Origin: a virus
Taxonomy: Duplodnaviria; Caudoviricetes
Reading direction: 5' to 3' (one strand)
Length of the DNA stretch: 49,450 nucleotides
Virus record (IMG/VR): IMGVR_UViG_3300010362_000024
Span: 1 to 49,450 of that record
Shown: piece after piece, positions 3,428-42,190 of the stretch
How positions within the stretch are numbered: position 1 is the stretch's first letter
Layout: the number at the start of each line of letters is the position of its first letter
The notes under the pieces: generated by a model
Seen by the model: the letters and a program-made list of their open reading frames with translations, nothing else
What the model was told of the DNA's origin: nothing
The model's database searches: none
Translations under genes and position numbers: made by a program

Positions 3428-3438
3428 GATCAACCTCC

Positions 3439-7565: not shown

Positions 7566-7567
7566 TG

Positions 7568-9158: not shown

Positions 9159-9173
9159 CGGCAGCCTCCATTG

Positions 9174-28136: not shown

Positions 28137-29348
28137 TTACTCTACCGCGGCGGCAGAGAGCGCGGAGGTTTGCGATTCCTCATCATACGTCCAATCACGG
28201 TCATCGTGATCGGCGTATGGGTCCCAATGAACCATGGTGAAGTCTCGGAGTTGCTCCCAGTCACCGCCATTCTCATGCAGTTCACACATGTCCTTGAACT
28301 GACACGCCAAGCAGTGTTGGTCTGGATAGTTCCCAGATGGGTTCTTGTACACAGGCAGTTTGCCGGCACGCACGAGTCCCATCTCATACGCTTCCATCCG
28401 TATCCTCTGCATGAGGTTCTGCCTGTCCACCGTGTCACGGTACACGCGCTGTCGATGAAAGAACGGTGCTGGCTGCTTCTTGGAGACATCACCAAGTAGC
28501 AGAGGATCCACACCTGCATCACTCAGGCAACGCATGAGGTCATCAACACGATTGCTGCTGGCACGCAAGCCGAGTCTGCGTACTTCTCCTGCAAGTACAT
28601 CGCGCTTGGGCTTGTTCAAATATGCACCGTCCGCACTCCGGGGTCGGGTGTCAGGCTTTGCCTTCCGCAAGAAGTTGTACATGATGAAGTCGATGTCTTG
28701 TCCCCTGCGGAGTATCGGCTGGCCGTGCCATTTGTAGCGTGGCAACACGAGTGGAGCCATTGCCCAGTATGACCCGGCCTGCTCATCCAAGCCAAGGTAC
28801 GCAGTGTTGATCGACGCCGCGGTCTTGGTCTCCAGCAAGCCCACCTGTGTGTGCGGTTGACTGTGGTCACGATACAAGGCATCGAACTTGCCCACATACC
28901 GCACTGGGTACAGTTTGCCGTCTTGCCCCAGCACACGCAGCCGTCGTCCACGCTTGTCTGTCATCCAGACTTGGAACGGAAACTCAGGGCAGATGATCTC
29001 CATTGAGTCATCATCTTCCCAGTGCGCGACGTAGTTGTGCATCATCTCCAGGCCCAGTTCCAGCGCATTGACCCAGGCTTCATCTTCATCCAGGCGGATG
29101 CTGAAGTCACGCAGACCATCCTCAATCTGCTGATTGTACACCGCCTCGAATGTCAACCATGGTTTGCGACCGCGCTTCCGCCCAGGGACATACCAAGCGG
29201 CCAGGCTCTGGTGGCTGATGTCACCAAACCTCAGGGCAGGGCGCGTCGCCACAGAATGGAGCCGATCAATGTGGCCCCACCACCACTGCTGTCGACAGGT
29301 CCGCCAACTCTTGCGTTCTGTTGTTCGGATGTAGATCACATCTTCCAT
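28137..29348 (-). CDS. Cas4/RecB-like PD-(D/E)XK exonuclease
   Basis: N-terminal Cys, 'FGDISH', 'GKFDAL...ETKT', C-terminal CxxC-x4-C cluster; adjacent to the Sak4 and SSB genes. Confidence 0.8.
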   Translation of the reverse strand: MEDVIYIRTTERKSWRTCRQQWWWGHIDRLHSVATRPALRFGDISHQSLAAWYVPGRKRGRKPWLTFEAVYNQQIEDGLRDFSIRLDEDEAWVNALELGLEMMHNYVAHWEDDDSMEIICPEFPFQVWMTDKRGRRLRVLGQDGKLYPVRYVGKFDALYRDHSQPHTQVGLLETKTAASINTAYLGLDEQAGSYWAMAPLVLPRYKWHGQPILRRGQDIDFIMYNFLRKAKPDTRPRSADGAYLNKPKRDVLAGEVRRLGLRASSNRVDDLMRCLSDAGVDPLLLGDVSKKQPAPFFHRQRVYRDTVDRQNLMQRIRMEAYEMGLVRAGKLPVYKNPSGNYPDQHCLACQFKDMCELHENGGDWEQLRDFTMVHWDPYADHDDRDWTYDEESQTSALSAAAVE

Positions 29349-29425
29349 TGCACATTCCTCCATTCCTGCCGGAGTCTATCGCGGTGCGTGTGTTGTGGGT
29401 CCCTCCTAGAACCCACGTAGATGTG

Positions 29426-31402
29426 CTAGATGATGCGCACACGGCGTAACTCATCAAGACTGGCGTTGGTCGCAGCCTTGCGGCCGGTCAACTCCATGAT
29501 GTACTCATCGATGGTGCCCAATGTGCGGAAGGTGTACACCGTCACCTGATGGATCCGTGAGACTCGATGGACCCTGTCCTCGGCTTGCACCTGGTCATCA
29601 GGATCCCAAGTCTCATCAAGGATGAAGACGGTGTTGGCGTTGTCGAGGGTGATGCTCACACCACCGGCTGTCGTCGTCATCACCAGCACTCTGGCGCCAT
29701 TGCGGCCTTGAAAGTCAGCCTGTATGGCATCGCGCTGCTTCTGATTGACGGAGCCAGTGATCTTTGCCACCCTCACGCCTTGCTGCTGAAGCCAGTCATG
29801 AACGAGATTCACGACCGTAGCAAACTGGGAGAATATGACAACCTGCTCGTCAGACTCTCCCTCAATGACACCAAGTTCATCGAGTTTGTCCAGCACTGAT
29901 TCAAGCTTGCCGCTGTCCTCAGTGGGCTTCAATTTGCCCCCATCCACGGTATGCACGCCAAACGAGAACTGCTTCAAACGCACAAACTCCGCAAGAACGC
30001 TGGATGCTGTGATGTCGATGCCATCGATGATGGCCGCCGAATCTTCAGCAAACTCCCTGTACACACGCGCCTGCTCTTCTGTCATATCGCACCAAACCTC
30101 AATGTGATCCTTGGGAGGTAGCCAAGGAGCCACTGCGGCTTTGGTGCGACGAATCAAGTAAGGCTGGAGCATGGCATAGAAGTCATCTTCAATCCGCCGG
30201 CAGCCGTCGCAGTCTGGGCGGCCAAGCGCGAAGTCATCGTGACCTTGGTGCGCTTGACAGTGCCGCAGACTGTTGCTGATGTCCCCCATCCGTGACCATT
30301 TGTTCGGTATGCGGTCACACCACAGGTCGGCAAACCGCCACTTGGACGAGAAGACATCAGGGTTCAGCCAGTGCAGAATGCCATAGAGGTTGATGATCTT
30401 GCCTCCCATGGCTGTGCCTGTGAGCGCGAACCTCTTGCCCTTCACAGGCTCAACCTTCAGCCCGCTCATGCCTTGGGCTGTCAGGGAGTCAGGGTGCCTC
30501 AGTGCATTCTTGTGAGCCTCATCAATGATGATGTTGCTCCAAGCAGTCTTGTGCAGGATTGGGAACTCAGATACCAGTTCATACACGCAGTCAGGGCAAG
30601 ACTTGAACTCACGTATGTTTGCCTTTGACTTGCGCATGAAGGCGTGTATGGGGCACTTCTCCAGTATCGTGCGGTACCTGACTTGGTCTGGATTGACGAC
30701 TAGCCACACCGGCAAGCCGGCATTGTGGTACTCCGCAAACTCATCAAACGCTGCGAGTTTCTGGGCCTTGGTGCCCACAGACACCACAACCTTGTGCGGT
30801 TGACAACCCTCCAACTCACGGCGCCACGTCGAGGTCAGTGCAGTCTTTGGCGCCACAACAAGTGTGGGACCAGCATCTGTACCAGCCTCGAAGATGGAGC
30901 CAATGGTCTCCAAGGTCTTGCCGAGGCCTGGCTCATTACCGTTCAACGGGTTGCGCTGAACGACGCCAAACATGACATCCGCGGCTTGGTAACTGGACTC
31001 TTGCCGCAGCGCTTGCTTGACTTGCTGGGCGGACATGAACTTGGCCTTGGGCCCAACGTGGAGTTTGACGTACAATTCCGGCAGAAGGTCAGGCAGCCGT
31101 ACAAGTTCGGCACTGGATGCTGTTGACAACTCCTTGAGTTGTCGCTCCTGCGCCACCAGGCGTTGCCCCCATACCTTCAAGGCATTCCCCAACTTGAGAT
31201 CGGCACCAAACACCTGACGCAACTGCCGTGCTACGTTGATGTCCAAGGGTAGTGACCAGAACGGTGTACCGTTGTGACTCTTGTCTTTCGACACAAATCT
31301 GGCACCGCTGAGTGCCTTCACAGCCGCGACTGCTTGTGGGCTGTACGGGAACCACACCTCAATACGTTTGTGGTTCTCTGACACTTCAGCAAATACTTCC
31401 AT
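29426..31402 (-). CDS. SNF2-family (SF2) helicase with Zn-finger-like insertions
   Basis: 'EPGLGKT', 'IIDEAH', 'LTGT', 'VIFSQF', 'GVSITL', 'QAEDRVHR'; AAGGAG RBS abuts ribozyme HHR1. Confidence 0.9.
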   Translation of the reverse strand: MEVFAEVSENHKRIEVWFPYSPQAVAAVKALSGARFVSKDKSHNGTPFWSLPLDINVARQLRQVFGADLKLGNALKVWGQRLVAQERQLKELSTASSAELVRLPDLLPELYVKLHVGPKAKFMSAQQVKQALRQESSYQAADVMFGVVQRNPLNGNEPGLGKTLETIGSIFEAGTDAGPTLVVAPKTALTSTWRRELEGCQPHKVVVSVGTKAQKLAAFDEFAEYHNAGLPVWLVVNPDQVRYRTILEKCPIHAFMRKSKANIREFKSCPDCVYELVSEFPILHKTAWSNIIIDEAHKNALRHPDSLTAQGMSGLKVEPVKGKRFALTGTAMGGKIINLYGILHWLNPDVFSSKWRFADLWCDRIPNKWSRMGDISNSLRHCQAHQGHDDFALGRPDCDGCRRIEDDFYAMLQPYLIRRTKAAVAPWLPPKDHIEVWCDMTEEQARVYREFAEDSAAIIDGIDITASSVLAEFVRLKQFSFGVHTVDGGKLKPTEDSGKLESVLDKLDELGVIEGESDEQVVIFSQFATVVNLVHDWLQQQGVRVAKITGSVNQKQRDAIQADFQGRNGARVLVMTTTAGGVSITLDNANTVFILDETWDPDDQVQAEDRVHRVSRIHQVTVYTFRTLGTIDEYIMELTGRKAATNASLDELRRVRII

Positions 31403-31410
31403 ATCGCTCC

Positions 31411-31475
31411 TTGACCTATCTCGTCAGTGCTGGGCGGTCAACCCACAGCAGACCCACCTATTGGTGGGTTTCGAC
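31411..31475 (-). ncRNA. Type II hammerhead ribozyme HHR1
   Basis: GUC-GAAA-CCCACC(AAUA)GGUGGG-UC^-UGCUG...CAGCA-CUGACGA-GAU; loop UUGACC pairs with tail GGUCAA; predicted cut 31451|31450. Confidence 0.9.
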
Positions 31476-31654
31476 TACTCAGCCACAACCTCATAGCGCG
31501 TCTTGATGCCCAAAGCCTTAGCCATCTTGTTGGCCTGGTCACAGACGTACTTGGCTTCCACCTTGGACAGTGGTACCGGCGCGATGGTCTTGCCACCACC
31601 GTGACCGGCGGTGTGAAGAGCACCATCAGTGGTGCGCACAACGTACTTCTCCAT
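31475..31654 (-). CDS. Small hypothetical protein (59 aa)
   Basis: MEKYVVRTTDGALHTAGHGGGKTIAPVPLSKVEAKYVCDQANKMAKALGIKTRYEVVAE; AAGGA RBS; its TAG overlaps HHR1. Confidence 0.65.
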   Translation of the reverse strand: MEKYVVRTTDGALHTAGHGGGKTIAPVPLSKVEAKYVCDQANKMAKALGIKTRYEVVAE

Positions 31655-31851
31655 GTTGTCCTTTCTTACCTTGTGTGGGTCTCTCGTGGGCGAAGGTGAC
31701 CCGGTAGCACTCCCCTACCGGGTGCACCGTTCACGCCCAGTGCAACTGTGCTGCAGGTGTGAATCTCGGCCGGCCAAATCGACAGAGATTCCCGCTCGTT
31801 CCCCCAGCATGGTCCACAATTGCATCCAATGAGCCTGCTCACAGGTTCCCA

Positions 31852-31912
31852 TTGCCTGCTCATCAGGTTGGGGCGGCACTCCCAACGACGCACAACTATG
31901 TGCGTTTCGCAG
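31852..31912 (-). ncRNA. Type II hammerhead ribozyme HHR2
   Basis: CUGC-GAAA-CGCACA(UAGU)UGUGCG-UC^-GUUGGG(AGUGCCGC)CCCAAC-CUGAUGA-GCAG; loop UGCC / tail GGCA; cut 31887|31886. Confidence 0.92.
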
Positions 31913-31985
31913 ATGCGGCGTGACCCGCCGGCCACGAATGACCGACGGGCCACAACCGCGTTATCCGCCAAGCAGGAGCGATGGC

Positions 31986-32777
31986 TCAGCGGACGCTTGT
32001 GATGTCCTCGATGGCGACAGTCTTGGCAAGACCGTTGTCATCAGTGAACTTCGCCAGCATCTTGCCCCTGGCGGTCTTGCCGACCTTCAGACCACTGCCA
32101 ATCTTGACCGTGGCCTCTGCGCCGTTGTCCGTGTACTTGATGGTCTTGCCGTCGATGGCATCCTTCACGTCGGCGGCGGACATGCCCTCAAAGGTGATGG
32201 GCGCTGCCTTCTTGGAAGCACGCTTGGACGCGCGCTTCTCAGCCGGAGGCTTGGCAGGACGGTGCTCCTCATACTTGCCATACCGGCCACCCTTGCCCAC
32301 GAACGACATGTGGGGATCGTGGCCAGCCTCCTTGTACAGCGCCTGCACCTGAGCCTTGGTCAGCACCGGGTCAAACGATGCACCGATGCGAGCCCACCCG
32401 ATCTTGTCATCGTCGCGCATCTTGACGATGGTGTCAGGGGTGGGCTTCCTGTTGACCTTGGGCTGCGTGGCACGGATGTACATCACCTGCGCGGTGACCT
32501 GGTTGAGATTCAACTGCTCAGCAATGGCCTTCAGGCTGAGACCTTCCTCATCGCGCAGGCGCACGACTTCGGCCTGATTCTCGTCATACTGCTCCTTGCG
32601 GGCAGTACGCTTGGCCTCGGCCTCAGCCTTCTTGGTGGCCTTCATGGCTGCCTTCTCGGCAGCCTCTTCAGCACCATTGTCCTCAGCCGGAGCAGCCTTC
32701 TTGGTGGCCTTGGCAGCCTTCTTGGCCGGTGCCTTCTTGGGCACCGGGTCGATGACTCCACGCTTCCTCACTGGCAT
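31986..32777 (-). CDS. Lys/Ala-rich DNA-binding protein with two HTH-like repeats
   Basis: Histone-H1-like 'KKAPAKKAAKATKKAA'; HTH-like 'VVRLRDEEGLSLKAIAEQL' and 'IVKMRDDDKIGWARIGASF'. Confidence 0.7.
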   Translation of the reverse strand: MPVRKRGVIDPVPKKAPAKKAAKATKKAAPAEDNGAEEAAEKAAMKATKKAEAEAKRTARKEQYDENQAEVVRLRDEEGLSLKAIAEQLNLNQVTAQVMYIRATQPKVNRKPTPDTIVKMRDDDKIGWARIGASFDPVLTKAQVQALYKEAGHDPHMSFVGKGGRYGKYEEHRPAKPPAEKRASKRASKKAAPITFEGMSAADVKDAIDGKTIKYTDNGAEATVKIGSGLKVGKTARGKMLAKFTDDNGLAKTVAIEDITSVR

Positions 32778-32836
32778 TCCAATCATTCCCTTTCCGTTTG
32801 GGGTTCATTTACGGAATCGTGACCCTACTACACCAT

Positions 32837-32902
32837 GACTATGCTCGTCAGACCGGAGGCAGTCGGGCTCCGGTGACCGCACATTTCTGTGCGGTTTCGC
32901 AT
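32837..32902 (-). ncRNA. Type II hammerhead ribozyme HHR3
   Basis: AUGC-GAAA-CCGCACA(GAAA)UGUGCGG-UC^-ACCGGAG..CUCCGGU-CUGACGA-GCAU; loop GACU / tail AGUC; cut 32875|32874. Confidence 0.92.
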
Positions 32903-32903
32903 T

Positions 32904-33215
32904 CTACTCCATGTACTTAACCAACCTATCGCAGAGGTATGCAATCTCCCCATGGTTGATCTTCAAGTGGGGATATGCCCAATAGAGCGTGAGCGTCATG
33001 AGGGTGACTAGGCTCAATGACCTCTCGTCAAGTTTGCCCTCTTGGTACTCATACTCTGGCTCAGTCACCTCCAGATTGGAGTCCGAGTCCTGCAACGTGT
33101 CAAGTACGTCAGACCATTGCGCGCCGCGCCAGTGGGGGTTTACCCTTGTGAAGTTACGTAGGGCAAGCCTGGACGTACCAGGCATATGTGTCTCGACAAT
33201 GAGAGTGGGGTCCAT
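32904..33215 (-). CDS. Hypothetical protein
   Basis: 103 aa; GGAGG RBS; stop 1 nt before HHR3. Confidence 0.65.
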   Translation of the reverse strand: MDPTLIVETHMPGTSRLALRNFTRVNPHWRGAQWSDVLDTLQDSDSNLEVTEPEYEYQEGKLDERSLSLVTLMTLTLYWAYPHLKINHGEIAYLCDRLVKYME

Positions 33216-33440
33216 TCATATCACCTCCCTCTCAATGAGACGCTTTGCCATCGCGATCGTGATAACACTTGGACCGCGCACTCCACAAATGAAGCCGATC
33301 AACGACCATGCCTCATCTGAGAGTTCATCCATCTTGCAAGCGGCCACCAACTTAGAACGTCCAGTGACATCCCTGTAGCCATACGCAAGGTCGATGGCGC
33401 GGTCCAGACGATTGATCCAGTGTGGGATATCATCTCCCAT
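33216..33440 (-). CDS. Hypothetical protein
   Basis: 74 aa; AAGGAGCGAA RBS downstream of HHR4. Confidence 0.6.
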   Translation of the reverse strand: MGDDIPHWINRLDRAIDLAYGYRDVTGRSKLVAACKMDELSDEAWSLIGFICGVRGPSVITIAMAKRLIEREVI

Positions 33441-33458
33441 TCATTTCGCTCCTTGTCG

Positions 33459-33523
33459 TGGTCTGTCTCATCAGGATGGGTAGACCAGTCCCCATCAACC
33501 GCACATATGCGTGCGGTTTCGAC
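33459..33523 (-). ncRNA. Type II hammerhead ribozyme HHR4 (GUU site)
   Basis: GUC-GAAA-CCGCAC..GUGCGG-UU^-GAUGGG(GACUGGUCUA)CCCAUC-CUGAUGA-GAC; loop UGGUCU / tail AGACCA; cut 33497|33496. Confidence 0.9.
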
Positions 33524-34192
33524 TCAAACTGCATTCCGCCGGCACCAAGGACCAATCCCCAGTTCTCTCGACAATTCATCAGTCAGATGCTTGAAGCACT
33601 TGCGACATCTGCCCAACTCCTTGGCGAACAGGAGACCAGACTTCTCAATACCGTGTTCCTTGATGGCCTCGCAAGCCTGCTGTACTTGTGGCGCTGGTAT
33701 GCGAATGTTGCGGTGACCACCGACCACCCTTGTGAGGAAGGTGCGACCCTTCCACTTGCCGTCATCTGGCGTATTGACCCAGAAGAAGTCCAGGTCATTG
33801 TTGCCTGTGGCACTAGGGACCGCATACCCTCCATCGGGCAGTACAATCTCCACCGCACCCTTGCGGGGCAAGGCTTTCAGCCACTCGATGACCATTGAAG
33901 CCTCGGCTTGCGACACCTCCTTGCCACCCATGACATCCTCCAGCCTTTCAACGAATGGGAAGTCCCACTCTGGGAGGTTTGCCGGCGGAACAACTCTGTT
34001 GCCAGCAAGGTCATTGATGTACTTGGCCTGGGGTTGTGTCATAGGACCCATCCCTGGCTTCCATGTGGTGGTGCGTTTCGGCGCGGGCATGTCAGGCATG
34101 TGTTGCTGGACTGGCCCGGCCGCGGCATAGCATGCCTTGACCTCATCAACGGTACTGTGGCTCGCACCACAGTATCCACATCGTATTGCCAT
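33524..34192 (-). CDS. Hypothetical protein with N-terminal CxxC...H...C and C-terminal DUF6011-like Zn finger
   Basis: True start MAIRCGYCG at 34192 (GGAGCGAAC RBS); C-terminal 'CRKCFKHLTDELSRELGIGPWC'. Confidence 0.7.
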   Translation of the reverse strand: MAIRCGYCGASHSTVDEVKACYAAAGPVQQHMPDMPAPKRTTTWKPGMGPMTQPQAKYINDLAGNRVVPPANLPEWDFPFVERLEDVMGGKEVSQAEASMVIEWLKALPRKGAVEIVLPDGGYAVPSATGNNDLDFFWVNTPDDGKWKGRTFLTRVVGGHRNIRIPAPQVQQACEAIKEHGIEKSGLLFAKELGRCRKCFKHLTDELSRELGIGPWCRRNAV

Positions 34193-34202
34193 GTTCGCTC
34201 CA

Positions 34203-34264
34203 TTGGCAGTCTCGTCAGCCGTGGAATGCCAATCCACGGAACGCACATCACTGTGCGTTTCGAC
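34203..34264 (-). ncRNA. Type II hammerhead ribozyme HHR5 (GUU site)
   Basis: GUC-GAAA-CGCACA(GUGA)UGUGCG-UU^-CCGUGGA..UCCACGG-CUGACGA-GAC; loop UUGGCA / tail UGCCAA; cut 34240|34239. Confidence 0.9.
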
Positions 34265-34475
34265 CTTTGTCACGTCCTAGGTCGATGATCCGCTCGCTGT
34301 CACTGTTCAGGCTCCAGCGTTCACGGATGCGACGGTCGATGTCACCCCAGGTGTCCTTTGTGATCTCATCGGCTGCCATATCGGATGCCACGTCGGCGAT
34401 GCTCGCTGATGTCAGCGGTGCACCGACGTACAGCATCTCAGTGATGGCCTTGTCGATCAGTTCATCGATGTCCAT
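34248..34475 (-). CDS. Hypothetical protein
   Basis: 75 aa; AAGGAGCGAA RBS; stop codon lies in the HHR5 stem III loop. Confidence 0.65.
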   Translation of the reverse strand: MDIDELIDKAITEMLYVGAPLTSASIADVASDMAADEITKDTWGDIDRRIRERWSLNSDSERIIDLGRDKGRNAQ

Positions 34476-34483
34476 TTCGCTCC

Positions 34484-34548
34484 TTGCTTGTCTCGTCAGT
34501 CATGGGGTAGCAAACTCCCATAAGACCCATCCGTAGATGGGTTTCGAC
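34484..34548 (-). ncRNA. Type II hammerhead ribozyme HHR6
   Basis: GUC-GAAA-CCCAUC(UACG)GAUGGG-UC^-UUAUGGG..CCCAUGA-CUGACGA-GAC; loop UUGCU / tail AGCAA; cut 34524|34523. Confidence 0.9.
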
Positions 34549-34854
34549 TCATCCCTCAGTAGGTAGGCAACCTATCGACCTGTAGTAACTCTCCAGGTAC
34601 TTCAGCGCGTCATCACTGCGACGCGCCATGGCGCAGAGCCTGTCCTCAACCTCACTCATCGCAAACACGACACGCATGCGACGGTTGAAGTTGTGGTTGA
34701 TCTTGACAGTGAGCCGGTACTGCTCGCCAAGGTCAGCGTCGGCAGCAATCTGCTGGCGATGAAGGTCGGCGCGCTCACTGGCAAGGTCGCATTCCCTGCT
34801 GAGCAGTCTCTGGTGATTGGCAATGGCCTCGTTGACTTGCGTCTTGAGTGTCAT
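34549..34854 (-). CDS. Hypothetical coiled-coil protein
   Basis: 101 aa; ATGA-coupled upstream; TGA directly abuts HHR6. Confidence 0.6.
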   Translation of the reverse strand: MTLKTQVNEAIANHQRLLSRECDLASERADLHRQQIAADADLGEQYRLTVKINHNFNRRMRVVFAMSEVEDRLCAMARRSDDALKYLESYYRSIGCLPTEG

Positions 34855-35057
34855 CGCTTGGCACCCTTGGGATCGATGTCGAAGGTGGCATCAGTGACTT
34901 CATACTCACTGGTGCCGTCGGCGCCCAGGCCGCTCAAGTTCACATTGCCAACGGCATCTTGGAATGCCGTTTGAATGGCCTCCTCAATCTCGTCACGGCT
35001 TGCGAACTTGCCTTCGACACGCTCCACATCAATGGAGAATGTCCCGCTGAACTGCAT
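34851..35057 (-). CDS. Hypothetical protein (68 aa)
   Basis: True start MQFSGTF at 35057 after the AAGGAGCGAAGG RBS. Confidence 0.65.
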   Translation of the reverse strand: MQFSGTFSIDVERVEGKFASRDEIEEAIQTAFQDAVGNVNLSGLGADGTSEYEVTDATFDIDPKGAKR

Positions 35058-35070
35058 CCTTCGCTCCTTG

Positions 35071-35132
35071 TTGGTAGTCTCGTCAGTCGTGGCATACCAA
35101 GCCACGAGACGCACATTTCTGTGCGTTTCGAC
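35071..35132 (-). ncRNA. Type II hammerhead ribozyme HHR7
   Basis: GUC-GAAA-CGCACA(GAAA)UGUGCG-UC^-UCGUGGC(UUGGUAU)GCCACGA-CUGACGA-GAC; loop UUGGUA / tail UACCAA; cut 35108|35107. Confidence 0.92.
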
Positions 35133-35133
35133 A

Positions 35134-35424
35134 TCATTCCCAGGGCGGCATCTCCTTGGACCAGTCATGCTCATGGTCGTCAGAACGCCCACAGATATCG
35201 CATGTTGCGACACCTTCAATGGGCTCTGCGTTGTCCTCAAGGTACTTGAGGTACTTGCAGCCGTCCTTGTGGTCGAGGGCATGTCCATCCCATACAGCGC
35301 CGCATGCGAGGCATTCGTCGCCGCGGTAGATGGACTCTTGGCACTCAAAGAAACGCTCATACGTGAGGTCTGGCATCTCCTTGGGTGGCATGTCAAACTG
35401 TGCCCGCCACTTCTCCTGTGACAT
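35134..35424 (-). CDS. Hypothetical Zn-binding protein
   Basis: True start MSQEKW at 35424; CxxC...H...C and CxxC...H motifs. Confidence 0.65.
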   Translation of the reverse strand: MSQEKWRAQFDMPPKEMPDLTYERFFECQESIYRGDECLACGAVWDGHALDHKDGCKYLKYLEDNAEPIEGVATCDICGRSDDHEHDWSKEMPPWE

Positions 35425-35438
35425 GTTCGCTCCTTGCT

Positions 35439-35502
35439 TTGGCAGTCTCGTCAGTACCAACATGCCAAGTTGGTAGACCGCACATCTCTATGCGGTTTCG
35501 AC
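35439..35502 (-). ncRNA. Type II hammerhead ribozyme HHR8
   Basis: GUC-GAAA-CCGCA..UGCGG-UC^-UACCAAC(UUGGCAU)GUUGGUA-CUGACGA-GAC; loop UUGGCA / tail UGCCAA; cut 35476|35475. Confidence 0.92.
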
Positions 35503-35706
35503 AAACACTTCCTCATACTTGCCGATCCTAGTCTTGGGCAGATCGCGGAGCCTGAGCGTGACGTAGTCACGTCCAACCTTCACGTCGGTGATCGTTGCTG
35601 TCCGTTTGAACGGCAGTACCATCACCATGCCAGGCTTGAGGTCACTCGCCACAACCAGCCTTGCTGTCTGCGGTGGCTCCTCATTGAGGTAGTCAGGGGT
35701 CATCAT
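35488..35706 (-). CDS. Hypothetical SH3/KOW-like protein
   Basis: 72 aa, 'ASDLKPGMVMV'; the last codons (VETA*) are encoded by HHR8. Confidence 0.65.
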   Translation of the reverse strand: MMTPDYLNEEPPQTARLVVASDLKPGMVMVLPFKRTATITDVKVGRDYVTLRLRDLPKTRIGKYEEVFVETA

Positions 35707-35714
35707 TCGCTCCT

Positions 35715-35775
35715 TGGCGTCTCATCAGCGGTGGATGCCATCCCACCGGACCCCACGAATGAGTGGGGTTTCGAC
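35715..35775 (-). ncRNA. Type II hammerhead ribozyme HHR9
   Basis: GUC-GAAA-CCCCAC..GUGGGG-UC^-CGGUGG(GAUGGCAU)CCACCG-CUGAUGA-GAC; loop UGGC / tail GCCA; cut 35749|35748. Confidence 0.9.
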
Positions 35776-35779
35776 ACAT

Positions 35780-36520
35780 TCACTTGTTCAACTCTCCGCG
35801 GTTGCCGCCGACCCTGGTCTGTCCAAGGTCGGCACGGTTGGCAGCACTCCGCCCAGAGGCAGCAGCCTCCCAGTCGGTCTGGGTCCTACGCTGTCTGGCC
35901 GGCTTGGTGTTCAACGAGTCCATGTACAACTGGACTTGCTTGCCGCGATCGATGATCGCAAGTTCCATGCCATTGCTGCTACCACTGGTCTTGATGGCCT
36001 CCTGTTCGGTGACCCTCTTGACCTCACGCAGACGCTCACCAATGCGGCGAGCGTAAGCGCTGCGGTAGGAACGGCGCCACTTGCCAGCACCCGATGACTT
36101 CTTGATGTCATCCGGCATCTCGCGGTTCTGCTCACGAGCACATTGCAACCACAGGCTCGTGTAGAGCATCTTGACCTTGTCAACATCAGACTTCCATCCG
36201 ATGAAGTCAACGCCAGCGTACGTCTTGAACCGCTCTGGTGAGTAGAGCAGGCAACGAACCCCATTCGCATCAGCAACTTCCACGGCCATCTCAACCATGG
36301 CATTGAACAAGCCGCTGCGCTTCATGGTGAAGTGCTCGGTGACGATCTTGTCGTCCGACTTGCCCTGCACGCTGAGCATCGCCTCATCAATGGCCCATAG
36401 GGTCATCAACTCTTGAGCCTTGGCGAAGAATGTCTCCGATTCGGGCCCACTGGCGGACTCAGCCTTGCGGATGAGTTTCTGGATCTTGTCGATCCATTTC
36501 TCTTGTTCCGTCATTTCCAT
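35780..36520 (-). CDS. DUF2786-domain protein
   Basis: N-terminal 'IDKIQKLIRKAES...E...FFAKAQELMTLWAID'; C-terminal 'GRSAANRADLGQ'. Confidence 0.75.
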   Translation of the reverse strand: MEMTEQEKWIDKIQKLIRKAESASGPESETFFAKAQELMTLWAIDEAMLSVQGKSDDKIVTEHFTMKRSGLFNAMVEMAVEVADANGVRCLLYSPERFKTYAGVDFIGWKSDVDKVKMLYTSLWLQCAREQNREMPDDIKKSSGAGKWRRSYRSAYARRIGERLREVKRVTEQEAIKTSGSSNGMELAIIDRGKQVQLYMDSLNTKPARQRRTQTDWEAAASGRSAANRADLGQTRVGGNRGELNK

Positions 36521-36538
36521 TCGCTCCTTGCTTGCGCT

Positions 36539-36601
36539 TAGCCTGTCTCGTCAGCGGTGAGAGGCTACCTCACCGGACCGCACAAACTGTGCGGTTTCGA
36601 C
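36539..36601 (-). ncRNA. Type II hammerhead ribozyme HHR10
   Basis: GUC-GAAA-CCGCACA(GUU)UGUGCGG-UC^-CGGUGAG(GUAGCCU)CUCACCG-CUGACGA-GAC; loop UAGCCU / tail AGGCUA; cut 36576|36575. Confidence 0.92.
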
Positions 36602-36877
36602 TCACAACACCTCCAGGAGACGACGTAGTACATCCTTGGCAACCTGCTCAGGCAGGTCGTCAATGTCAAACAAGTACGTGCGCCGTTTGATGCCCAAGTC
36701 ACCGCTACGCAGGAGAATCCTGCCAGACATCCAGACGGATGTCGCGGACTTGATGCTGATCTTGTCAACGCTGATCTCGATGTCACTCTCCCCATAGGGT
36801 TCCATGACAACGAAACGCTCGCTGTCGAGCAGGTCGATGTCGATCACCAACATGGTGCTGATCTTCAATGCCATCAT
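36602..36877 (-). CDS. Hypothetical protein
   Basis: Start MMALKIS after AAGGAGCGA; TGA abuts HHR10. Confidence 0.65.
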   Translation of the reverse strand: MMALKISTMLVIDIDLLDSERFVVMEPYGESDIEISVDKISIKSATSVWMSGRILLRSGDLGIKRRTYLFDIDDLPEQVAKDVLRRLLEVL

Positions 36878-36884
36878 TCGCTCC

Positions 36885-36948
36885 TTTGCCTGTCTCATCA
36901 GTCACGAGCGGCAAACCTCGTGAGACCCACTTGTCAGTGGGTTTCGAC
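36885..36948 (-). ncRNA. Type II hammerhead ribozyme HHR11
   Basis: GUC-GAAA-CCCAC..GUGGG-UC^-UCACGAG(GUUUGCCG)CUCGUGA-CUGAUGA-GAC; loop UUUGCC / tail GGCAAA; cut 36924|36923. Confidence 0.92.
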
Positions 36949-37122
36949 ACTCTCCAGGTCCAGCAGGTCACCAGCACCGGTGAAGGTGCCGGCCCATCCG
37001 ATGCCATCGACCCAGCGCCACACCATCTGCGTGGCAAACTCAGCCGGGCAGCCCTGCCTCGTCACGACTGACTCCCACATGTGGGCGCCAATCGCGCAGA
37101 GGAACCATACGGTGAACTCCAT
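36934..37122 (-). CDS. Hypothetical protein
   Basis: 62 aa; AAGGAGCGAA RBS; ends VETH* inside HHR11. Confidence 0.55.
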   Translation of the reverse strand: MEFTVWFLCAIGAHMWESVVTRQGCPAEFATQMVWRWVDGIGWAGTFTGAGDLLDLESVETH

Positions 37123-37133
37123 TGCTTCGCTCC

Positions 37134-37199
37134 TTGGTTTGTCTCATCAGCGGCAGGGTAACCAACCCCACCGGACCGCACTGGCTGTGCGGTTTCGAC
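37134..37199 (-). ncRNA. Type II hammerhead ribozyme HHR12
   Basis: GUC-GAAA-CCGCAC(AGCCA)GUGCGG-UC^-CGGUGGGG..CCCUGCCG-CUGAUGA-GAC; loop UUGGUU / tail AACCAA; cut 37174|37173. Confidence 0.88.
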
Positions 37200-37201
37200 G
37201 T

Positions 37202-37471
37202 TCAGGCTGCCGCCTCATCAGCGTCGTGGAGACGCTTGACCGCAGCCTTGGAGATGCCGTACTTGGCGGCGATGGCCGCCCAGGCGATGCCCTGCGCACG
37301 CTCCTTGCGCACCCGGCTGGTCGTGGCCTTGACCTTGACGACCTTGGTGGTGGCGCGGAGGTAGTGCTTGTACGCGGTCAGCGGGTGGCAACCCACGGCC
37401 TCACCGATCTCAGGCCAGGTCTTGCCATCCACGTCACGCATCTCGATGATGGTGTCAACGTTCAGTTCCAT
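37202..37471 (-). CDS. Double-HTH DNA-binding protein (89 aa)
   Basis: Start MELNVD at 37471; 'KTWPEIGEAVGCHPLTAYKHY' and 'IAWAAIAAKYGISKAAVKRL'; paralogous to 37560-37811. Confidence 0.7.
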   Translation of the reverse strand: MELNVDTIIEMRDVDGKTWPEIGEAVGCHPLTAYKHYLRATTKVVKVKATTSRVRKERAQGIAWAAIAAKYGISKAAVKRLHDADEAAA

Positions 37472-37494
37472 TGCTTGCTTTCTCTCTTTCGTTG

Positions 37495-37559
37495 TCGCCT
37501 GTCTCGTCAGTACTGGATGGCGAATCCCAGTAGACCCCACAAATCCGTGGGGTTTCGAC
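37495..37559 (-). ncRNA. Type II hammerhead ribozyme HHR13
   Basis: GUC-GAAA-CCCCAC..GUGGGG-UC^-UACUGG(GAUUCGCCAU)CCAGUA-CUGACGA-GAC; loop UCGCC / tail GGCGA; cut 37533|37532. Confidence 0.92.
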
Positions 37560-37811
37560 TCAAGCCGCCTCAGCGTACAACTCCTTGACGACCTTCTTGC
37601 TCGTGCCGTACCGCGCAGCGATACGGCCCCAAGCCGTGCCGTTGTCACGGTCACGGCGGACACGCGTCACCGTGGCGGACTGTCCGATGTTCTCGGTGGC
37701 TCGCATGTAATAGCGGCGCACCGTGACCGGATGCAGACCGTAGAGGTCAGCAATCTCCTTGATGGAGTAGCCATCCTCGTGCATGGTGACGATGTTCTTG
37801 AACTCGCTCAT
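37560..37811 (-). CDS. Double-HTH DNA-binding protein (83 aa)
   Basis: Start MSEFKN at 37811; 'YSIKEIADLYGLHPVTVRRYY' and 'TAWGRIAARYGTSKKVVKEL'. Confidence 0.7.
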   Translation of the reverse strand: MSEFKNIVTMHEDGYSIKEIADLYGLHPVTVRRYYMRATENIGQSATVTRVRRDRDNGTAWGRIAARYGTSKKVVKELYAEAA

Positions 37812-37831
37812 TTCACTGGTTCCATTCTTTC

Positions 37832-37896
37832 TTGTCTGTCTCGTCAGCGGTGGGCGACAAACCCCACCGGACCCCATTGACTACTGGGGTTTCGAC
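37832..37896 (-). ncRNA. Type II hammerhead ribozyme HHR14
   Basis: GUC-GAAA-CCCCA..UGGGG-UC^-CGGUGGG(GUUUGUCG)CCCACCG-CUGACGA-GAC; loop UUGUC / tail GACAA; cut 37870|37869. Confidence 0.9.
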
Positions 37897-38072
37897 TTGT
37901 TCGACCGCAGCACAGCCTCATGCTTGGCATCGCGGCGGCTCATCGAGCAGCCGGTACACCAGACGGTCTTGTTCTTGGGGCTCACACGGCGGCAGTCAAA
38001 CTCACCGCCACCGCAGAACCACTTGCCTCGCGGCACTTGCCTCATAGGCTTGCCGCGCTTGGGCTTCAACAT
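37881..38072 (-). CDS. Small basic Cys-rich protein (63 aa); first gene of the early operon
   Basis: MLKPKRGK... after an AAGGAG RBS; C-x6-C...CxxC; stop lies inside HHR14 stem III. Confidence 0.6.
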   Translation of the reverse strand: MLKPKRGKPMRQVPRGKWFCGGGEFDCRRVSPKNKTVWCTGCSMSRRDAKHEAVLRSNKSKPQ

Positions 38073-38081
38073 TCGTGCTCC

Positions 38082-38195
38082 TTGGTGACTCATCAGGGCA
38101 GGGTACCAATCCTTGCCAACCTGGGTGCCATCGGCGTTGCTTCAATGAGGGGCAACGCGCCCAGCGGGGTGACGAGCCCACCCCCAGGTTTCGGT
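38082..38195 (-). ncRNA. Variant type II hammerhead ribozyme HHR15 with an enlarged stem III insert
   Basis: C-GAAA-CCUGGG[~60 nt structured insert]CCCAGG-UU^-GGCAAGG(AUUGGUA)CCCUGCC-CUGAUGA-G; loop UUGGU / tail ACCAA; stem II reduced to about 1 bp; cut 38118|38117. Confidence 0.6.
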
Positions 38196-38198
38196 GAC

Positions 38199-38330
38199 CA
38201 TCGGTGCGGTTTCATTGAGTGAACGCACGCCCAGTCTGGAACGATTGTTGGAACGATTCGTTGCTCACGTTCATCGCAGTAGCGTCCACGGAGAGGCTAC
38301 TGACCCGTTCATCGATGCGGTTTCATTGAG
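38199..38330. repeat. 21-bp direct repeat pair flanking a tandem TGGAACGATT (candidate early promoter/operator)
   Basis: catcggtgcggtttcattgag (38199-38219) and catcgatgcggtttcattgag (38310-38330); tggaacgatt at 38237 and 38249. Confidence 0.6.
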
Positions 38331-38586
38331 GGAGACGCATGCCCGACCGTGAGCAACGTAGTGACGGATCGGCTTGACGTCCATCCCATCCTGCGCGGCG
38401 GACTCTGGGGAGTCCACGCATCGTGGGGGAGAGGTCAAGCACCACCCGCCGCACAATTCGTGCGGCCGAAGGTAGCCCAAGCGTCAGAAGTGGCCCAGAT
38501 TCCCATCGTTTCCGCACCGCCCGTTACTTGCCAGCCCCTACTGGGGTCCCATTTGGGACGTCTTCAGGAGTCATCGTCCGCACATA

Positions 38587-38823
38587 ATCCCCACACTTTC
38601 GTGGGGTAGGGGTGGGAGCCAGACGACTGCGGCTTTCACGGCTGCGGCGGTTTCGGCGTCGCTTATCCCCACACTTTCGTGGGGTAGGGGCGACGCGCCG
38701 ACCTTCTTGGGAGCCGAGACTGCGGAATCTGTGCGATTCATCCGCTATCGCTACCGGCCGTCATCACCCTACGGCGCAAGTCTGGGGCCGTTCCCTGGGG
38801 GTTTCCCCCACACTTTCGTGGGG
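38587..38823. repeat. Three copies of the hairpin repeat CCCCACACTTTCGTGGGG
   Basis: atccccacactttcgtggggtagggg at 38587-38612 and 38665-38690; core copy at 38806-38823. Confidence 0.8.
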
Positions 38824-39082
38824 TTCCTCCCAGGACCGCTCCGGCGCTTCCCAGCGCCGTCGATCCCCACAACGTACTGCAGCCCGCAGGGTACCGCACC
38901 GAGCACACCGAAACCTGAAGTTGTCAGAAAGTTGTGCTCCTACCTGCAGCGGAGGATGGAAGAATGCCACGATCGTTGTGACCCCATCTGACGTGCGGTT
39001 TCGCACAGATTCGTGGGGGATATGGGCGCACGTCCAAACCTCGGCCGATCCCCACGAAACGCACAGAACTGTGCGGTTCATC

Positions 39083-39589
39083 GAACCCCACTCGTTTATG
39101 GGAACCCCACGAGTCTGTGCTGCCCGGTGGATAGGTAGGTTACCTACCCATTTCGGGCGAACCCCATCCGTTTATGGGAACCCCACCAGAACGTGGGGTC
39201 GCGATCGACGTTTCCCCACCATCCTCGAGGTTTCCGCACGTCAGAGTGGGTTTCTGGGGTTTCGGCTCCCAGCCGGCCACTGTTTCCGCACTTCAAGTGG
39301 GACACGTGCGTGACGACGTGCGGCTTTCTAGCCTCGTGGGCCTCTCGTGGGCCGTCGTGCCCGACAACCCCACTTCGGCACGGACCCCTGGGATCGGCCG
39401 GAAATCTGACGTGCGGCCCCACTGCAAACCCACGTCGCCCCAGAGACGGGTCACCGTCCGCGGCGATCCCTGGGCCCTACGTGCGCCACTCGTGGGCTAC
39501 GGTGCGGCTTCAACCACAGACCCCACCCGCTAGTGCGGTCGGGTGGGCCTTGTCCACCGAGTGGGTTGTATAGGTAGCCTACCTATCCA
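39083..39589. repeat. Nested direct and inverted repeats in the large non-coding region
   Basis: gaacccca-nn-cgtttatgggaacccc at 39083 and 39159 flank the palindrome ggtaggttacctacc (39134-39148); tggataggtaggttaccta (39128-39146) recurs inverted with one mismatch at 39571-39589. Confidence 0.65.
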
Positions 39590-39606
39590 ATTGGCCACGA
39601 AACCCA

Positions 39607-40173
39607 CTAGTTTGTGCGCCACTCCGCAAACACCGCACGATACGTGCAAAGAATGTCCTCAACATCATCCGCCGGACAAGCCCGCAACTCCGGGGGCAAG
39701 TCAGGACGCTCAATGCGCTCCCCAGCAAACCGCACACCCGTAAGGGTTTCCCAGCCAAGCCTGACACCAGCATGGAGGTACACGCTCATCGGCTCATGCC
39801 CAAGAAACGCACCAATCCGCACAGCAACGTCATACGTGGTGACCGGCCCGATGCCCGGCCCACCACAGGACCGCACAAGGTCGTGCAACTCATCAAAGTT
39901 GCGGCACGCCCGTGCCGACACGTACTTGTCCGTCAACCGCACAGATAGCGCATGCAAAGCGCGCCTGGGAACGCGACTCTGATGGTTGTGCATCTTGCCG
40001 CGGTCATCGCGTGAGCGACAAGCACGCACAACGGCTGTGCGGTACGTTGGCGCTGTGCGGGCATACTCGACCACCCTGTCACGACGGCTGGGCGGGAAAC
40101 GGGTGTAGAAGTCATCGACCACCTCACCCAACGTCCGCAGCACAACGCCATTCAACTCGCGCTTGACGTCCAT
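39607..40173 (-). CDS. Helix-hairpin-helix-fold hypothetical protein (possible DNA base-processing/modifying enzyme)
   Basis: 'PGIGPVTTYDVAVRIG' HhH motif plus 'HNHQSR', 'VYLHAG' and 'EDILC'; TGATG-coupled to the endolysin. Confidence 0.55.
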   Translation of the reverse strand: MDVKRELNGVVLRTLGEVVDDFYTRFPPSRRDRVVEYARTAPTYRTAVVRACRSRDDRGKMHNHQSRVPRRALHALSVRLTDKYVSARACRNFDELHDLVRSCGGPGIGPVTTYDVAVRIGAFLGHEPMSVYLHAGVRLGWETLTGVRFAGERIERPDLPPELRACPADDVEDILCTYRAVFAEWRTN

Positions 40174-41033
40174 CAGGCAGGGCTGCTGATCTGTCCACCC
40201 AACTTGTCAGGGCCACTCCACTTGCCACCGATGAACCACCAGTGCCACAGCGAGTTGTCATCGGCCCTGGCGAACACGTCCAACTGCTTGCTGGCAGGCG
40301 CCAGTTGAAACTCACCCTTGACCGGCTTGCTCTGACCGGGCAACTGCGACCATCCGCTCCACTTGCCCACAGAAGTGTTCCAATGATTGCTGTAGAGAGT
40401 GCCATCCGTGCCACGCACAACCGAAACACAGAATGCCTCTTCAAGCCATTGCGCACCCAATTGCTCTGCCACGTCAATCCCTCCAATGCTTCTTGTTGCC
40501 GGCGGACCACCCTGCAGAACCCCAGCAACTTGCTGCCGCATAAGGCTCATCGGCCAGTCGCGGATGTCAATCTTGCGGTTGGGCGCCCACTCATTGTGGC
40601 CGCAGACCATTGGGAAGTCGAAGTCGCCAAGCCGGCAATAGGCCGCGTTGACCTTTGGGTATGCCTCATGTTGGGCTGGCGTCCAATCGCCATCACCGCC
40701 ACATTCTGCCTCGGTGCCGAACACTGAACTGTTCCCAGACAAGCCCTGCCACCCACCTTCACCAGCGTGGTTGGCTCGACCCGCGGCAACAACCACGGCA
40801 ATGCCGTTGCGATCCAAGTACGTGTTGGCCAGCGGACCAGGCAAGTCAGGACGACCATTCACCACCGTGTTGAGCGACGGCCGACCAGTGGCGTCCCTGG
40901 GCCCACCCGTCCAATGACAGACGGCCCCACGAGGATCAAACGAGTCACTGCCGCGCGTCGTCCAACCTTGGTACTCTTCAACCTGCAAGCCCTCAGCACG
41001 CAGCGCGTTGGCCAAGCCAGTAGCACGGCCCAT
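40173..41033 (-). CDS. Endolysin: N-acetylmuramoyl-L-alanine amidase (Amidase_2) with a C-terminal beta-propeller lectin-like repeat domain
   Basis: 'CHWTG', 'GRPDLPGPLAN', 'GRANHAG', 'GTEAE', 'GHNEWAPNRKID'; C-terminal 'VRGTDGTLY...WSGW..LPG' and 'LDVFARADDNSLWH...W...LGG' repeats. Confidence 0.9.
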   Translation of the reverse strand: MGRATGLANALRAEGLQVEEYQGWTTRGSDSFDPRGAVCHWTGGPRDATGRPSLNTVVNGRPDLPGPLANTYLDRNGIAVVVAAGRANHAGEGGWQGLSGNSSVFGTEAECGGDGDWTPAQHEAYPKVNAAYCRLGDFDFPMVCGHNEWAPNRKIDIRDWPMSLMRQQVAGVLQGGPPATRSIGGIDVAEQLGAQWLEEAFCVSVVRGTDGTLYSNHWNTSVGKWSGWSQLPGQSKPVKGEFQLAPASKQLDVFARADDNSLWHWWFIGGKWSGPDKLGGQISSPA

Positions 41034-41149
41034 CAGGCTTGACCCTCTTCACGGTACTCCTCATCAGGCGTGTGGTCAGGGTCAAAGGCATCAGGGTCAT
41101 CGTCAGGGTCACCAGCGTGACCTTCCAACAGATCATCGTCATCTCTCAT
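41033..41149 (-). CDS. Small acidic protein (38 aa)
   Basis: MRDDDDLLEGHAGDPDDDPDAFDPDHTPDEEYREEGQA; AAGGAG RBS; TGATG-coupled to the endolysin. Confidence 0.55.
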   Translation of the reverse strand: MRDDDDLLEGHAGDPDDDPDAFDPDHTPDEEYREEGQA

Positions 41150-41179
41150 GATTGCTCCTTTCCGCGACGGAGCCTACCC

Positions 41180-42190
41180 CTAGCCCGTACTTGTTATCTG
41201 GAGTGTCCAGTTCTGCGTCTCCATATATGCGTCCCCATAGCAACCAAGCCCACATTGCCCACTGTCACGTATGGCCAAGATGAGCGAAGGCGGTATTGGA
41301 AGCCATGCCGTCTGACTGACTGCGAGATCACCAACACGCCCTTGGAACGCAACCGCAGGTTGACCTGCAGGGATGGTGGGGTGAGCATGAACACCAACAT
41401 ACAACGGTTGGGCCCCATAGATGCCAATCCCGCTGATCCTTGTGACCAGAATGGCGGCGCTGTTGACAGTCCGCCCAGCCAAGGAAGATCGGATGGTGGC
41501 ATAATCATAGAGCGCAATCCCGGTGTACGGACCCCAGCCACTGGAACTGGCACCCTGCCAAATGTCAGACTTGGCCCAACCGCCTTGAGGTCGCCAAGAG
41601 CCAGCACCAAGCACAACATACTGATCGGTGCGCGTCGTCGGAGTTGTCGGAGGCGGCGGCGGTGGCGGTGGCGGGGCAGGCGGTGCCGTGGACAGGATGA
41701 ACTCAGGCTTGCCATCTGACTGGCCAGCGAGGTATGACGGGCCAGCGAATGTCAACAGCCACGGCATGTATGACTGAACGACGGCCGCACCGCTGGCGCG
41801 CCGTGCCCACCACTGGAGTTCAATGGCCTGACCCTCCCACCCGACAGAGAATGGGTGTGCCCAAGTGAATCGTGCGATCCCTGCGCTGTTTGCTGGAACA
41901 GTCAGCGTGCTCGTTTGTATGCCTGAATACCGTTCCTTGATGTACACCTCACCAGGCGATGACGCGCCGGTCACGACGTAGCCTTCAGCCTGGATGACTC
42001 CATAGGCCGGTGCCAGCACGACTTTGCGGGCAACGAGCGTCCAACCAGCACTGACATCCACGATGTTGTTGAGCGCCCAACTGTCCACCACCACGGGCGG
42101 CATCTTGCTGCTGCGCTCCAAGCGTTCAATGCGATCACTGAGTGCTTGAAACTCATTGGGGATCGTCGGCGGCAGCACTGGGTCAGTCAT
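41180..42190 (-). CDS. Minor tail / receptor-binding protein
   Basis: Last tail gene; N-terminal coiled coil 'DRIERLER', poly-Pro linker, beta-rich C-terminal domain. Confidence 0.65.
   Translation of the reverse strand: MTDPVLPPTIPNEFQALSDRIERLERSSKMPPVVVDSWALNNIVDVSAGWTLVARKVVLAPAYGVIQAEGYVVTGASSPGEVYIKERYSGIQTSTLTVPANSAGIARFTWAHPFSVGWEGQAIELQWWARRASGAAVVQSYMPWLLTFAGPSYLAGQSDGKPEFILSTAPPAPPPPPPPPPTTPTTRTDQYVVLGAGSWRPQGGWAKSDIWQGASSSGWGPYTGIALYDYATIRSSLAGRTVNSAAILVTRISGIGIYGAQPLYVGVHAHPTIPAGQPAVAFQGRVGDLAVSQTAWLPIPPSLILAIRDSGQCGLGCYGDAYMETQNWTLQITSTG

Follow-up and report, generated by a model that had tools for sequence, protein, structure and literature searches.

The DNA analysed here (the window) is a linear phage record of 49,450 bp, IMG/VR record IMGVR_UViG_3300010362_000024, with an estimated completeness of 75%, in which every annotated gene is on the minus strand. 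Genes for the head, the tail and lysis are followed by a non-coding stretch (~38200-39600), an array of hammerhead ribozymes (HHRs), and then genes for a helicase, an exonuclease, a Sak4-like annealing protein and a DnaE-type polymerase. The location of the array between the non-coding stretch and the replication genes suggests that it is an early region. The host is probably an actinobacterium, since actinobacteriophages are the nearest cultured relatives of the capsid (~52%) and helicase (~33%) proteins. Compared with cultured phages, the array DNA matched nothing except short low-complexity pieces. Fourteen intact type II hammerheads are sited between small genes on the minus strand, at 31418-37896, and it is probable that they cut an early transcript into linear mRNAs of one or two genes. 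The ribozymes are listed below from the upstream end, each with its stem II and cut position where these apply, followed by the genes in the units that they bound and two further features of the record. ORF stands for open reading frame and HTH for helix-turn-helix.

38087..38195 (-): HHR15, degenerate first copy; 71-nt stem III, 1-bp stem II, GUU triplet; Rfam E 0.25
37838..37896 (-): HHR14; GUC/GAC; cut 37870/37869; upstream ORF stops in the stem III loop; found by Rfam and the descriptor scan
37501..37559 (-): HHR13; GUC/GAC; cut 37533/37532
37141..37199 (-): HHR12; GUC/GAC; cut 37174/37173; N5 palindrome in stem III
36892..36948 (-): HHR11; GUC/GAC; cut 36924/36923; upstream ORF stops in stem III
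36545..36601 (-): HHR10; GUC/GAC; cut 36576/36575; N5 palindrome
35719..35775 (-): HHR9; GUC/GAC; cut 35749/35748
35445..35502 (-): HHR8; GUC/GAC; cut 35476/35475; upstream ORF stops in stem III
35077..35132 (-): HHR7; GUC/GAC; cut 35108/35107
34490..34548 (-): HHR6; GUC/GAC; cut 34524/34523; found by the descriptor scan only, with no Rfam row
34209..34264 (-): HHR5; GUC/GAC; GUU triplet; cut 34240/34239; seen in the descriptor scan alone; stop codon of the upstream ORF within stem III
33465..33523 (-): HHR4; GUC/GAC; GUU cleavage triplet; cut 33497/33496
32842..32901 (-): HHR3; UGC/GCA; cut 32875/32874
31857..31911 (-): HHR2; UGC/GCA; cut 31887/31886
31418..31475 (-): HHR1; GUC/GAU; cut 31451/31450; adjoins the helicase ribosome-binding site on its upstream side
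37560..37811 (-): 83-aa tandem HTH protein, unit HHR14-13
37202..37471 (-): 89-aa HTH paralogue, 43% identical to the neighbouring 83-aa protein, unit HHR13-12
36934..37122 (-): 62-aa ORF of no known family, unit HHR12-11
36602..36877 (-): 91-aa ORF of no known family, unit HHR11-10
35780..36520 (-): 246-aa DUF2786/DUF7168 protein, unit HHR10-9
34248..35706 (-): five small ORFs (72, 96, 68, 101 and 75 aa) of no known family, units HHR9 to HHR5
33524..34192 (-): 222-aa DUF6011 protein, unit HHR5-4
32904..33440 (-): two ORFs, unit HHR4-3; closure impossible (GAC vs UGC)
31986..32786 (-): 266-aa protein, HTH/sigma-region-4-like, unit HHR3-2; distantly paralogous to both small HTH proteins
31478..31654 (-): 59-aa ORF, unit HHR2-1; closure impossible (GCA vs GUC)
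26502-27323 and 28137-29363 (-): Sak4-like single-stranded DNA annealing protein and PD-(D/E)XK exonuclease, candidate machinery for short-homology recombination
38590..39618 (no strand): non-coding region with 11 clustered CSCAY-N6-RTGSG palindromes, the arms mismatched in 5 of them; putatively operator- or iteron-like

A CUGANGA core, the GAAA, an NUH cleavage triplet, closed stems I and III, an open stem II, and a pseudoknot of 4-7 bp between loop I and the 3' tail are present in all 14 copies, and cores, stems and pseudoknots are intact throughout, with compensatory variation. Scanning with a structure descriptor recovers every intact copy plus the degenerate fifteenth, and made no calls in 19 of 20 doublet-shuffled windows and one call in the remaining one. 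The Rfam model RF02276 detects nine hammerheads at its gathering score, and 12 of the 14 intact copies plus the degenerate one at E<=5. As the first-pass annotation had proposed, stem III lies upstream of the cut, while stem I and the pseudoknot lie downstream of it, and each loop pairs better with its own tail (mean 5.6 bp) than with those of other copies (4.0 bp). The stop codon of every upstream ORF precedes the cut, and in four cases it falls within stem III. The sequence AAGGAGCG has 12 sites in the genome, 10 of which are within the array region. Hammerhead plus ribosome-binding site fully account for the anatomy of the junctions.

The feature that first drew attention to this array was its stem II, said to be a universal GUC/GAC helix flanked by stems I and III that vary freely, such that joining the ends of any excised unit would rebuild a hammerhead. 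The identity of HHR4-HHR14 is confirmed in 11 of 11 copies at all six positions, with variation in the flanking positions, and the proposed mutual compatibility of HHR3 and HHR2 also holds, both carrying UGC/GCA. HHR1 has GUC/GAU and is therefore compatible with the main GUC/GAC group. “Universal” was nevertheless too strong: the ends of 11 of the 13 units can pair as a chimeric stem II, but units HHR4-HHR3 and HHR2-HHR1 are unable to close. Free variation was correct for stem I, whose pairs 1-4 are at background identity (0.21-0.35), and not for stem III, which carries a palindrome and has a length of 18-20 nt in all 14 copies. Eleven GUC/GAC stems of 14 exceed what independent draws would give (P 6e-4 to 3e-3), though the copies are paralogues; finding the two UGC/GCA copies side by side has P=0.15 under random order.

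The stem II types of other phages were surveyed in 123 loci from one of the 64 parts of the collection; after a structure check, 42 of the loci yielded 55 distinct type II hammerheads. The underlying viral scan fixes only the innermost stem II pair, is blind to the outer two, and covers CUGAUGA cores only. GUC/GAC is the commonest stem found (18 of 55 distinct sequences, 15 of 39 when one is taken per locus, and 6 of 17 solo ribozymes), and a stem II of 3 bp occurs in 31 of the 55. We estimate that about 1,800 viral stretches hold the GUC/GAC pattern. Identity at stem II pair 2 is 0.74 in this array, on average 0.75 in 17 other arrays, and 0.30 between 38 unrelated loci; most of the comparison arrays came from GUC/GAC-biased scans, which inflates that type, and the five that also appear in the unbiased scan give 0.79. 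Loci L278, L280 and L281 are the window itself and were excluded from all counts. The dominant stem differs by array, being GAC/GUC in L170 and L419, ACC/GGU in L253 and GGC/GCC in L175, and within-array identity is also raised at position III.3 and, in other arrays, at tail positions. Thus the uniformity of stem II is real but is not unique to this phage, as other arrays settle on other stems. Further large type II arrays were found in unrelated phages, at L287 6130-12760 (11 copies), L066 3454-6370 (9), L063 3726-6920 (8) and L284 780-5089 (7), and an unbiased scan of bacterial genomes returned almost only chance matches (three weak calls among L292-L412). A subclass with a short stem I, a stem II of 4-5 bp and no long pseudoknot loop dominates L066, L170, L056 and L419.

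The best explanation, which we hold to be probable, is that the ribozymes cut one early polycistronic transcript into linear mRNAs of one or two genes, with recombination incidental and stem III a protein site. The 14 hammerheads upstream of the helicase would cleave the long transcript co-transcriptionally, leaving linear mRNAs that are predicted to begin with the stem I hairpin beside a ribosome-binding site and to end with the stem III hairpin. Apart from the 3-bp stem II, no Watson-Crick helix holds the products together, so they would separate fast, making cutting effectively one-way. The uniformity of stem II may be explained by the copies being paralogues derived from the commonest phage type II stem, together with the poor tolerance of change expected of a 3-bp long-range helix; the hairpin stems I and III can presumably change arm by arm. 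Occasional DNA recombination between copies probably adds to the uniformity and moves genes as a side effect, and stem III is further constrained by a 16-bp palindrome, a putative site for the tandem-HTH proteins encoded in the array.

The motif CSCAY-N6-RTGSG occurs 28 times in the genome, where 1.73 copies are expected and none of 100 shuffles reaches 28. Eleven copies are in stem III, 11 in the non-coding cluster at 38590-39618 and six elsewhere. The stem III palindromes have the N6 spacer in 11 of the 14 ribozymes, N5 in two, and one mismatch in HHR14. In the non-coding cluster the local expectation is 0.05 and the spacer spectrum peaks at 6, and a CUGANGA-like core is found within 80 nt of just one of the 11 copies. 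This pattern would fit protein half-sites one helical turn apart rather than RNA hairpins, and the stem III palindrome is likely to be a protein-binding DNA site. Candidate binders are most plausibly the phage's own tandem-HTH proteins from the same array: the 83-aa protein is modelled as two three-helix HTH domains (pLDDT 81.5, pTM 0.45). A fold search with this HTH model gave no match at E<=0.001; the best-ranked row (E 0.09) was a tandem HTH protein that binds CRISPR repeats, and serves as a lead only. Alternatively, the palindromes may be replication iterons or a host-factor site. Of 233 other phage hammerheads compared, 3 have the motif, and a scan for the palindrome led to loci with 1-3 copies each. 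A literature search found no report of a hammerhead helix doubling as an operator, but it covered subscription papers thinly and novelty is unproven. If the operator reading is true, a single sequence acts on the DNA as a repressor site and in the transcript as a catalytic helix, linking transcriptional shut-off, mRNA maturation and the turnover of accessory genes. A second small palindrome family (TAGGTAG..ACCTA) has members at 39132 and 39571 in the non-coding region and at 34560, just upstream of HHR6.

Several observations weigh against the processing reading or parts of it. Cleavage and expression in this phage are predictions from sequence, and the operator reading draws on statistics and a predicted fold. 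Conservation drops abruptly on either side of stem II, and stem I is at background, a pattern that neutral paralogy alone fits less well than some selection for cross-compatibility. Furthermore, no type II hammerhead was found in ten helicase-related viral loci, seven of which were also scanned with Rfam with no hit; three of the ten (L132, L136 and L139) carry little or no upstream DNA. One of these relatives, L133, has homologous genes without ribozymes, and processing is therefore dispensable in the wider helicase-related group. At 5800-10000, L133 has the same genome layout, with small genes joined by overlapping ATGA stop-start junctions that accompany a repeated GCATCATGA.

Closer relatives are known from proteins. 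These sister phages encode HTH homologues (85% and 81%) on one 6995-bp contig, and a helicase homologue (91%). The homologue of the 62-aa ORF (79%) is on a different contig from these HTH homologues, and the 6995-bp contig has no listed homologue of it, which is insufficient evidence for a loss of the gene. No sister phage came out of a scan of the genome collection. The N-terminal extension of sister protein P0002 and the C-terminus of P0006 match the translated sequences of HHR14 and HHR11, respectively, which suggests that the ribozymes are retained in the sisters. A viral scan with the DUF2786 protein gave no matches.

Of the rival explanations, the one that survives best is that the uniform stem II is kept mainly as a compatibility standard for DNA cassette shuffling through crossovers between ribozyme copies. 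Such crossovers, helped by the annealing protein, would remove, add or rearrange genes and would have to leave a functional chimeric ribozyme. This possibility we regard as doubtful. Shuffling can coexist with mRNA processing, and competes with it only if taken as the chief cause of the uniformity; as a side effect of repeats it is plausible, with the PeSL elements of phage T4 as a precedent and sequence comparisons that point to it in other phage groups. The clearest case is the pair L287 and L290, in which the order u2,u3,u4,u5,u6 of L287 corresponds to u2,u6,X,u3,u4,u5 in L290; their homology breaks off at HHR3, in its GUCGA, and is taken up again at the 5' edge of a ribozyme and, elsewhere, exactly at a GUC cleavage triplet. 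Between L415 and L417, an orthologous ribozyme lying between orthologous flanks has a stem III identical to that of a paralogue, and in two pairs of gut phages homology resumes at the 5' edge of a solo ribozyme. In these few cases the breakpoints are spread over shared blocks and not fixed at the cut, as expected if they arose by DNA recombination rather than RNA-mediated insertion. Within the window, the 43%-identical paralogues in two neighbouring units, the Sak4-like protein and the exonuclease are compatible with shuffling, as is the contrast in pair 2 identity within and between loci.

Other observations count against this rival. Many arrays retain different stem II types next to one another, and the orthologous ribozymes of L287 and L290 themselves differ in stem II. 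Exact homology between copies of the array is short (longest 17 nt, median 11; mean column identity 67%), compared with ~100 bp for PeSLs. One DNA run from the possible source sample, kept as contigs at a depth of ~9, covers the array without skipping joints or variants, and the sisters that might show rearrangement are available as proteins alone. The ribozyme-free L133 also has its HTH and DUF6011 genes in swapped order. A Mantel-type comparison of similarity between 5' and 3' halves was flat and uninformative (combined Z 0.86 and 0.10). The cassette scheme had been put forward as integron-like with no integrase; no match to the tyrosine-recombinase integrase family PF00589 was found in the record, which is linear and estimated to be 75% complete, but the scheme is not enzyme-free, given that the phage encodes the Sak4-like annealing protein and the PD-(D/E)XK nuclease.

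A bolder combination of these ideas, which we consider unlikely, would make each junction a 60-80 bp module serving at once as an operator for the phage's own tandem-HTH proteins (through the stem III palindrome), ribozyme, ribosome-binding site and recombination joint, with the invariant stem II keeping chimeras active. If true, the early region would be a self-regulating, integrase-free cassette array.

That the array reflects neutral or selfish spread of a ribozyme plus ribosome-binding site repeat by duplication, with the non-coding palindromes as decayed ribozyme halves, seems improbable. Relatives without the array, the degenerate fifteenth copy and possible decayed sixteenth at the upstream end, and the partly similar flanks shared by the non-coding palindromes are all consistent with it. 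Decay is difficult to reconcile with cores, stems and pseudoknots that are intact in every one of the 14 copies, with the strict 6-bp spacer of the non-coding palindromes despite mismatched arms and the near absence of core-like sequence beside them, or with the read-through in sister proteins that points to retention.

The remaining rival holds that the ribozyme or host RtcB ligates the released units, yielding circular mRNAs that build up and are functional. The first-pass annotation had suggested that each gene could exist as a circular RNA. Hammerhead product ends (5'-OH and 2',3'-cyclic phosphate) suit RtcB ligation, stem II can re-form in the 11 closable units, and RtcB is encoded in 10 of 14 control genomes, including that of Corynebacterium glutamicum; none was found in the record itself, a linear one with an estimated completeness of 75%. 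Because four ORFs extend through stem II and the GAAA into stem III, ribosomes could unfold and disrupt a re-formed hammerhead. However, any tandem type II array whose stems match will close into a hammerhead by geometry alone, and comparison with other phages gives no sign that stem II pairing is selected across unit ends. In 32 of their units whose neighbours differ in stem II, closure pairs 13 and the reverse combination 12; both native stems pair over 3 bp in 27 of these, the filter having demanded 2 bp. Closable units number 55 of 70, compared with 52.3 after order shuffling, and a block with orthologues in L290 and L287 can close in the former but not in the latter. Counting all other-phage units shorter than 2.5 kb (n=96), 77 are closable and 19 are not.

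Folding of nine of the 13 units of the array as circles (with no shuffle control, and with four units longer than 600 nt left out) retained stem III at a probability of at least 0.84 in eight of the nine and stem I of at least 0.82 in five. Since a circle keeps the hairpins needed for cutting, the predicted circles would re-cut. The folding model gives the native stem II a low probability too, and is therefore unable to judge the chimeric stem II. The bare GAC/GUC duplex is worth -0.5 kcal/mol. The sequestration of the hammerhead that is typical of retrozyme and viroid circles was not seen in the folded units; retrozyme circles pair the hammerhead motif away (PMC4918200). Hammerheads also favour cleavage over ligation, which averages ~0.01/min against ~1/min for cleavage according to a review (PMC12118343). 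Finally, Perreault 2011 considered spliced or circular products of such clusters and reports detecting none (data not shown, PMC3088659). For this phage, a look for RNA runs that contain the array listed none, which speaks neither for nor against circles. Circular phage mRNAs would be far more surprising than linear ones if true, but the comparative tests weigh against them and we regard them as very improbable.

The upstream end of the array has further features. HHR15 is probably inactive, judging from its sequence. The first ribozyme has an unusually long stem III in several arrays (window 38087-38195, L063, L287, L290 and L069), and a weak stem II of 1-2 bp in the window, L063 and L290; such first ribozymes may overlap a promoter, or be regulated or decayed copies. 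Three copies of a 24-nt repeat (CATCG..GCGGTTTCATTGAG type) lie upstream of the array at 38129-38333, and could be a promoter element. On the minus strand, a hairpin and a broken core come after the copy at ~38255-38335, an arrangement that resembles a decayed sixteenth hammerhead. A scan for sigma70-like promoters found no minus-strand site in 29000-41500. At 32800-32850 on the minus strand, the CTGACG of the HHR3 core, 18 nt before TAGGGT, resembles an actinobacterial -35/-10 pair ahead of the 266-aa HTH gene; in L133, a repeated TAGACT element precedes the homologue of this gene. HHR5 and HHR4, both with GUU instead of GUC, flank the DUF6011 gene and could tune that unit. A GUU cleavage triplet usually cuts more slowly than GUC.

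Elsewhere in the record, contigs of the source run break at 39025-39033, where depth falls from ~8.9 to 6.5, possibly marking a genome end or a repeat. The PHROG label “polynucleotide kinase” for 23787-24509 was rejected on the basis of a DIDGT motif and matches to NT5C-type nucleotidase clusters; the product is likely a HAD/NT5C-type nucleotidase. Other domains include a SAP-domain protein and a Rho-N-domain protein (3077-3433; 25584-26501) and a Prok-JAB domain (11904-12311).

Several known systems resemble parts of this array. In the early region of T7, RNase III cuts one early transcript between genes into separate mRNAs. The processing proposed here is alike in cutting a single transcript between genes, but would be RNA-catalysed, where that of T7 is protein-dependent. 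Retrozymes and viroid monomers share with our units their release by two hammerheads, with 5'-OH and cyclic phosphate ends (PMC4918200). Retrozymes, however, are non-coding retroelements with long terminal repeat features and a hammerhead that is paired away (PMC4918200), whereas our units consist of ORFs unrelated to each other, and the hammerhead hairpins persist in their predicted circles.

For the palindrome, the nearest precedent, by analogy, would be the stoperators of cluster A mycobacteriophages, in which a phage protein that has two DNA-binding domains binds more than 20 copies of a short DNA site, many of them located in short gaps between genes (PMC9283540). Many dispersed intergenic copies are found here as well. 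Stoperators are asymmetric, orientation-dependent 13-mers bound by an immunity repressor (PMC9283540), unlike the 16-bp interrupted palindrome inside a ribozyme helix described here, where binding is putative, as is any kinship of the HTH proteins to that repressor.

T4 PeSLs are likewise repeated intergenic elements between ORFans, and Arbiol et al. 2010 (PMC2839356) describe how their recombination excises or inserts genes and leaves a chimera; chimeric elements, DNA mini-circles and a comparison to integrons without integrase are thus already published. PeSLs consist of a promoter and terminator, with ~100 bp conserved and mini-circles shown (PMC2839356), while the element in this array is a ribozyme plus ribosome-binding site, known from sequence alone, with the short exact homology given above and no sigma70-like promoter found per repeat.

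The closest match is to the clusters of Perreault 2011 (PMC3088659; RF02276), which have type II topology, a short stem II, a pseudoknot between loop I and the 3' tail, and single genes bracketed by ribozymes. In vitro, three of those tandem clusters underwent cleavage at every site, as did one in E. coli, and it was proposed that clusters process transcripts to operon- or single-gene mRNAs (PMC3088659). In the window, too, a phage operon has single genes or short gene blocks set between several ribozymes; it differs in holding 14 intact copies, where triple arrangements were tested there (PMC3088659), and in a stem III that bears a genome-wide DNA palindrome. The role of phage hammerhead clusters has been a question since 2011, and with a 14-copy array and its cut map, the processing, circle and shuffling models can be tested from one synthetic 7-kb template. 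As a whole, the array is a large genuine example of the layout described since 2011, and its new element is the operator-like stem III.

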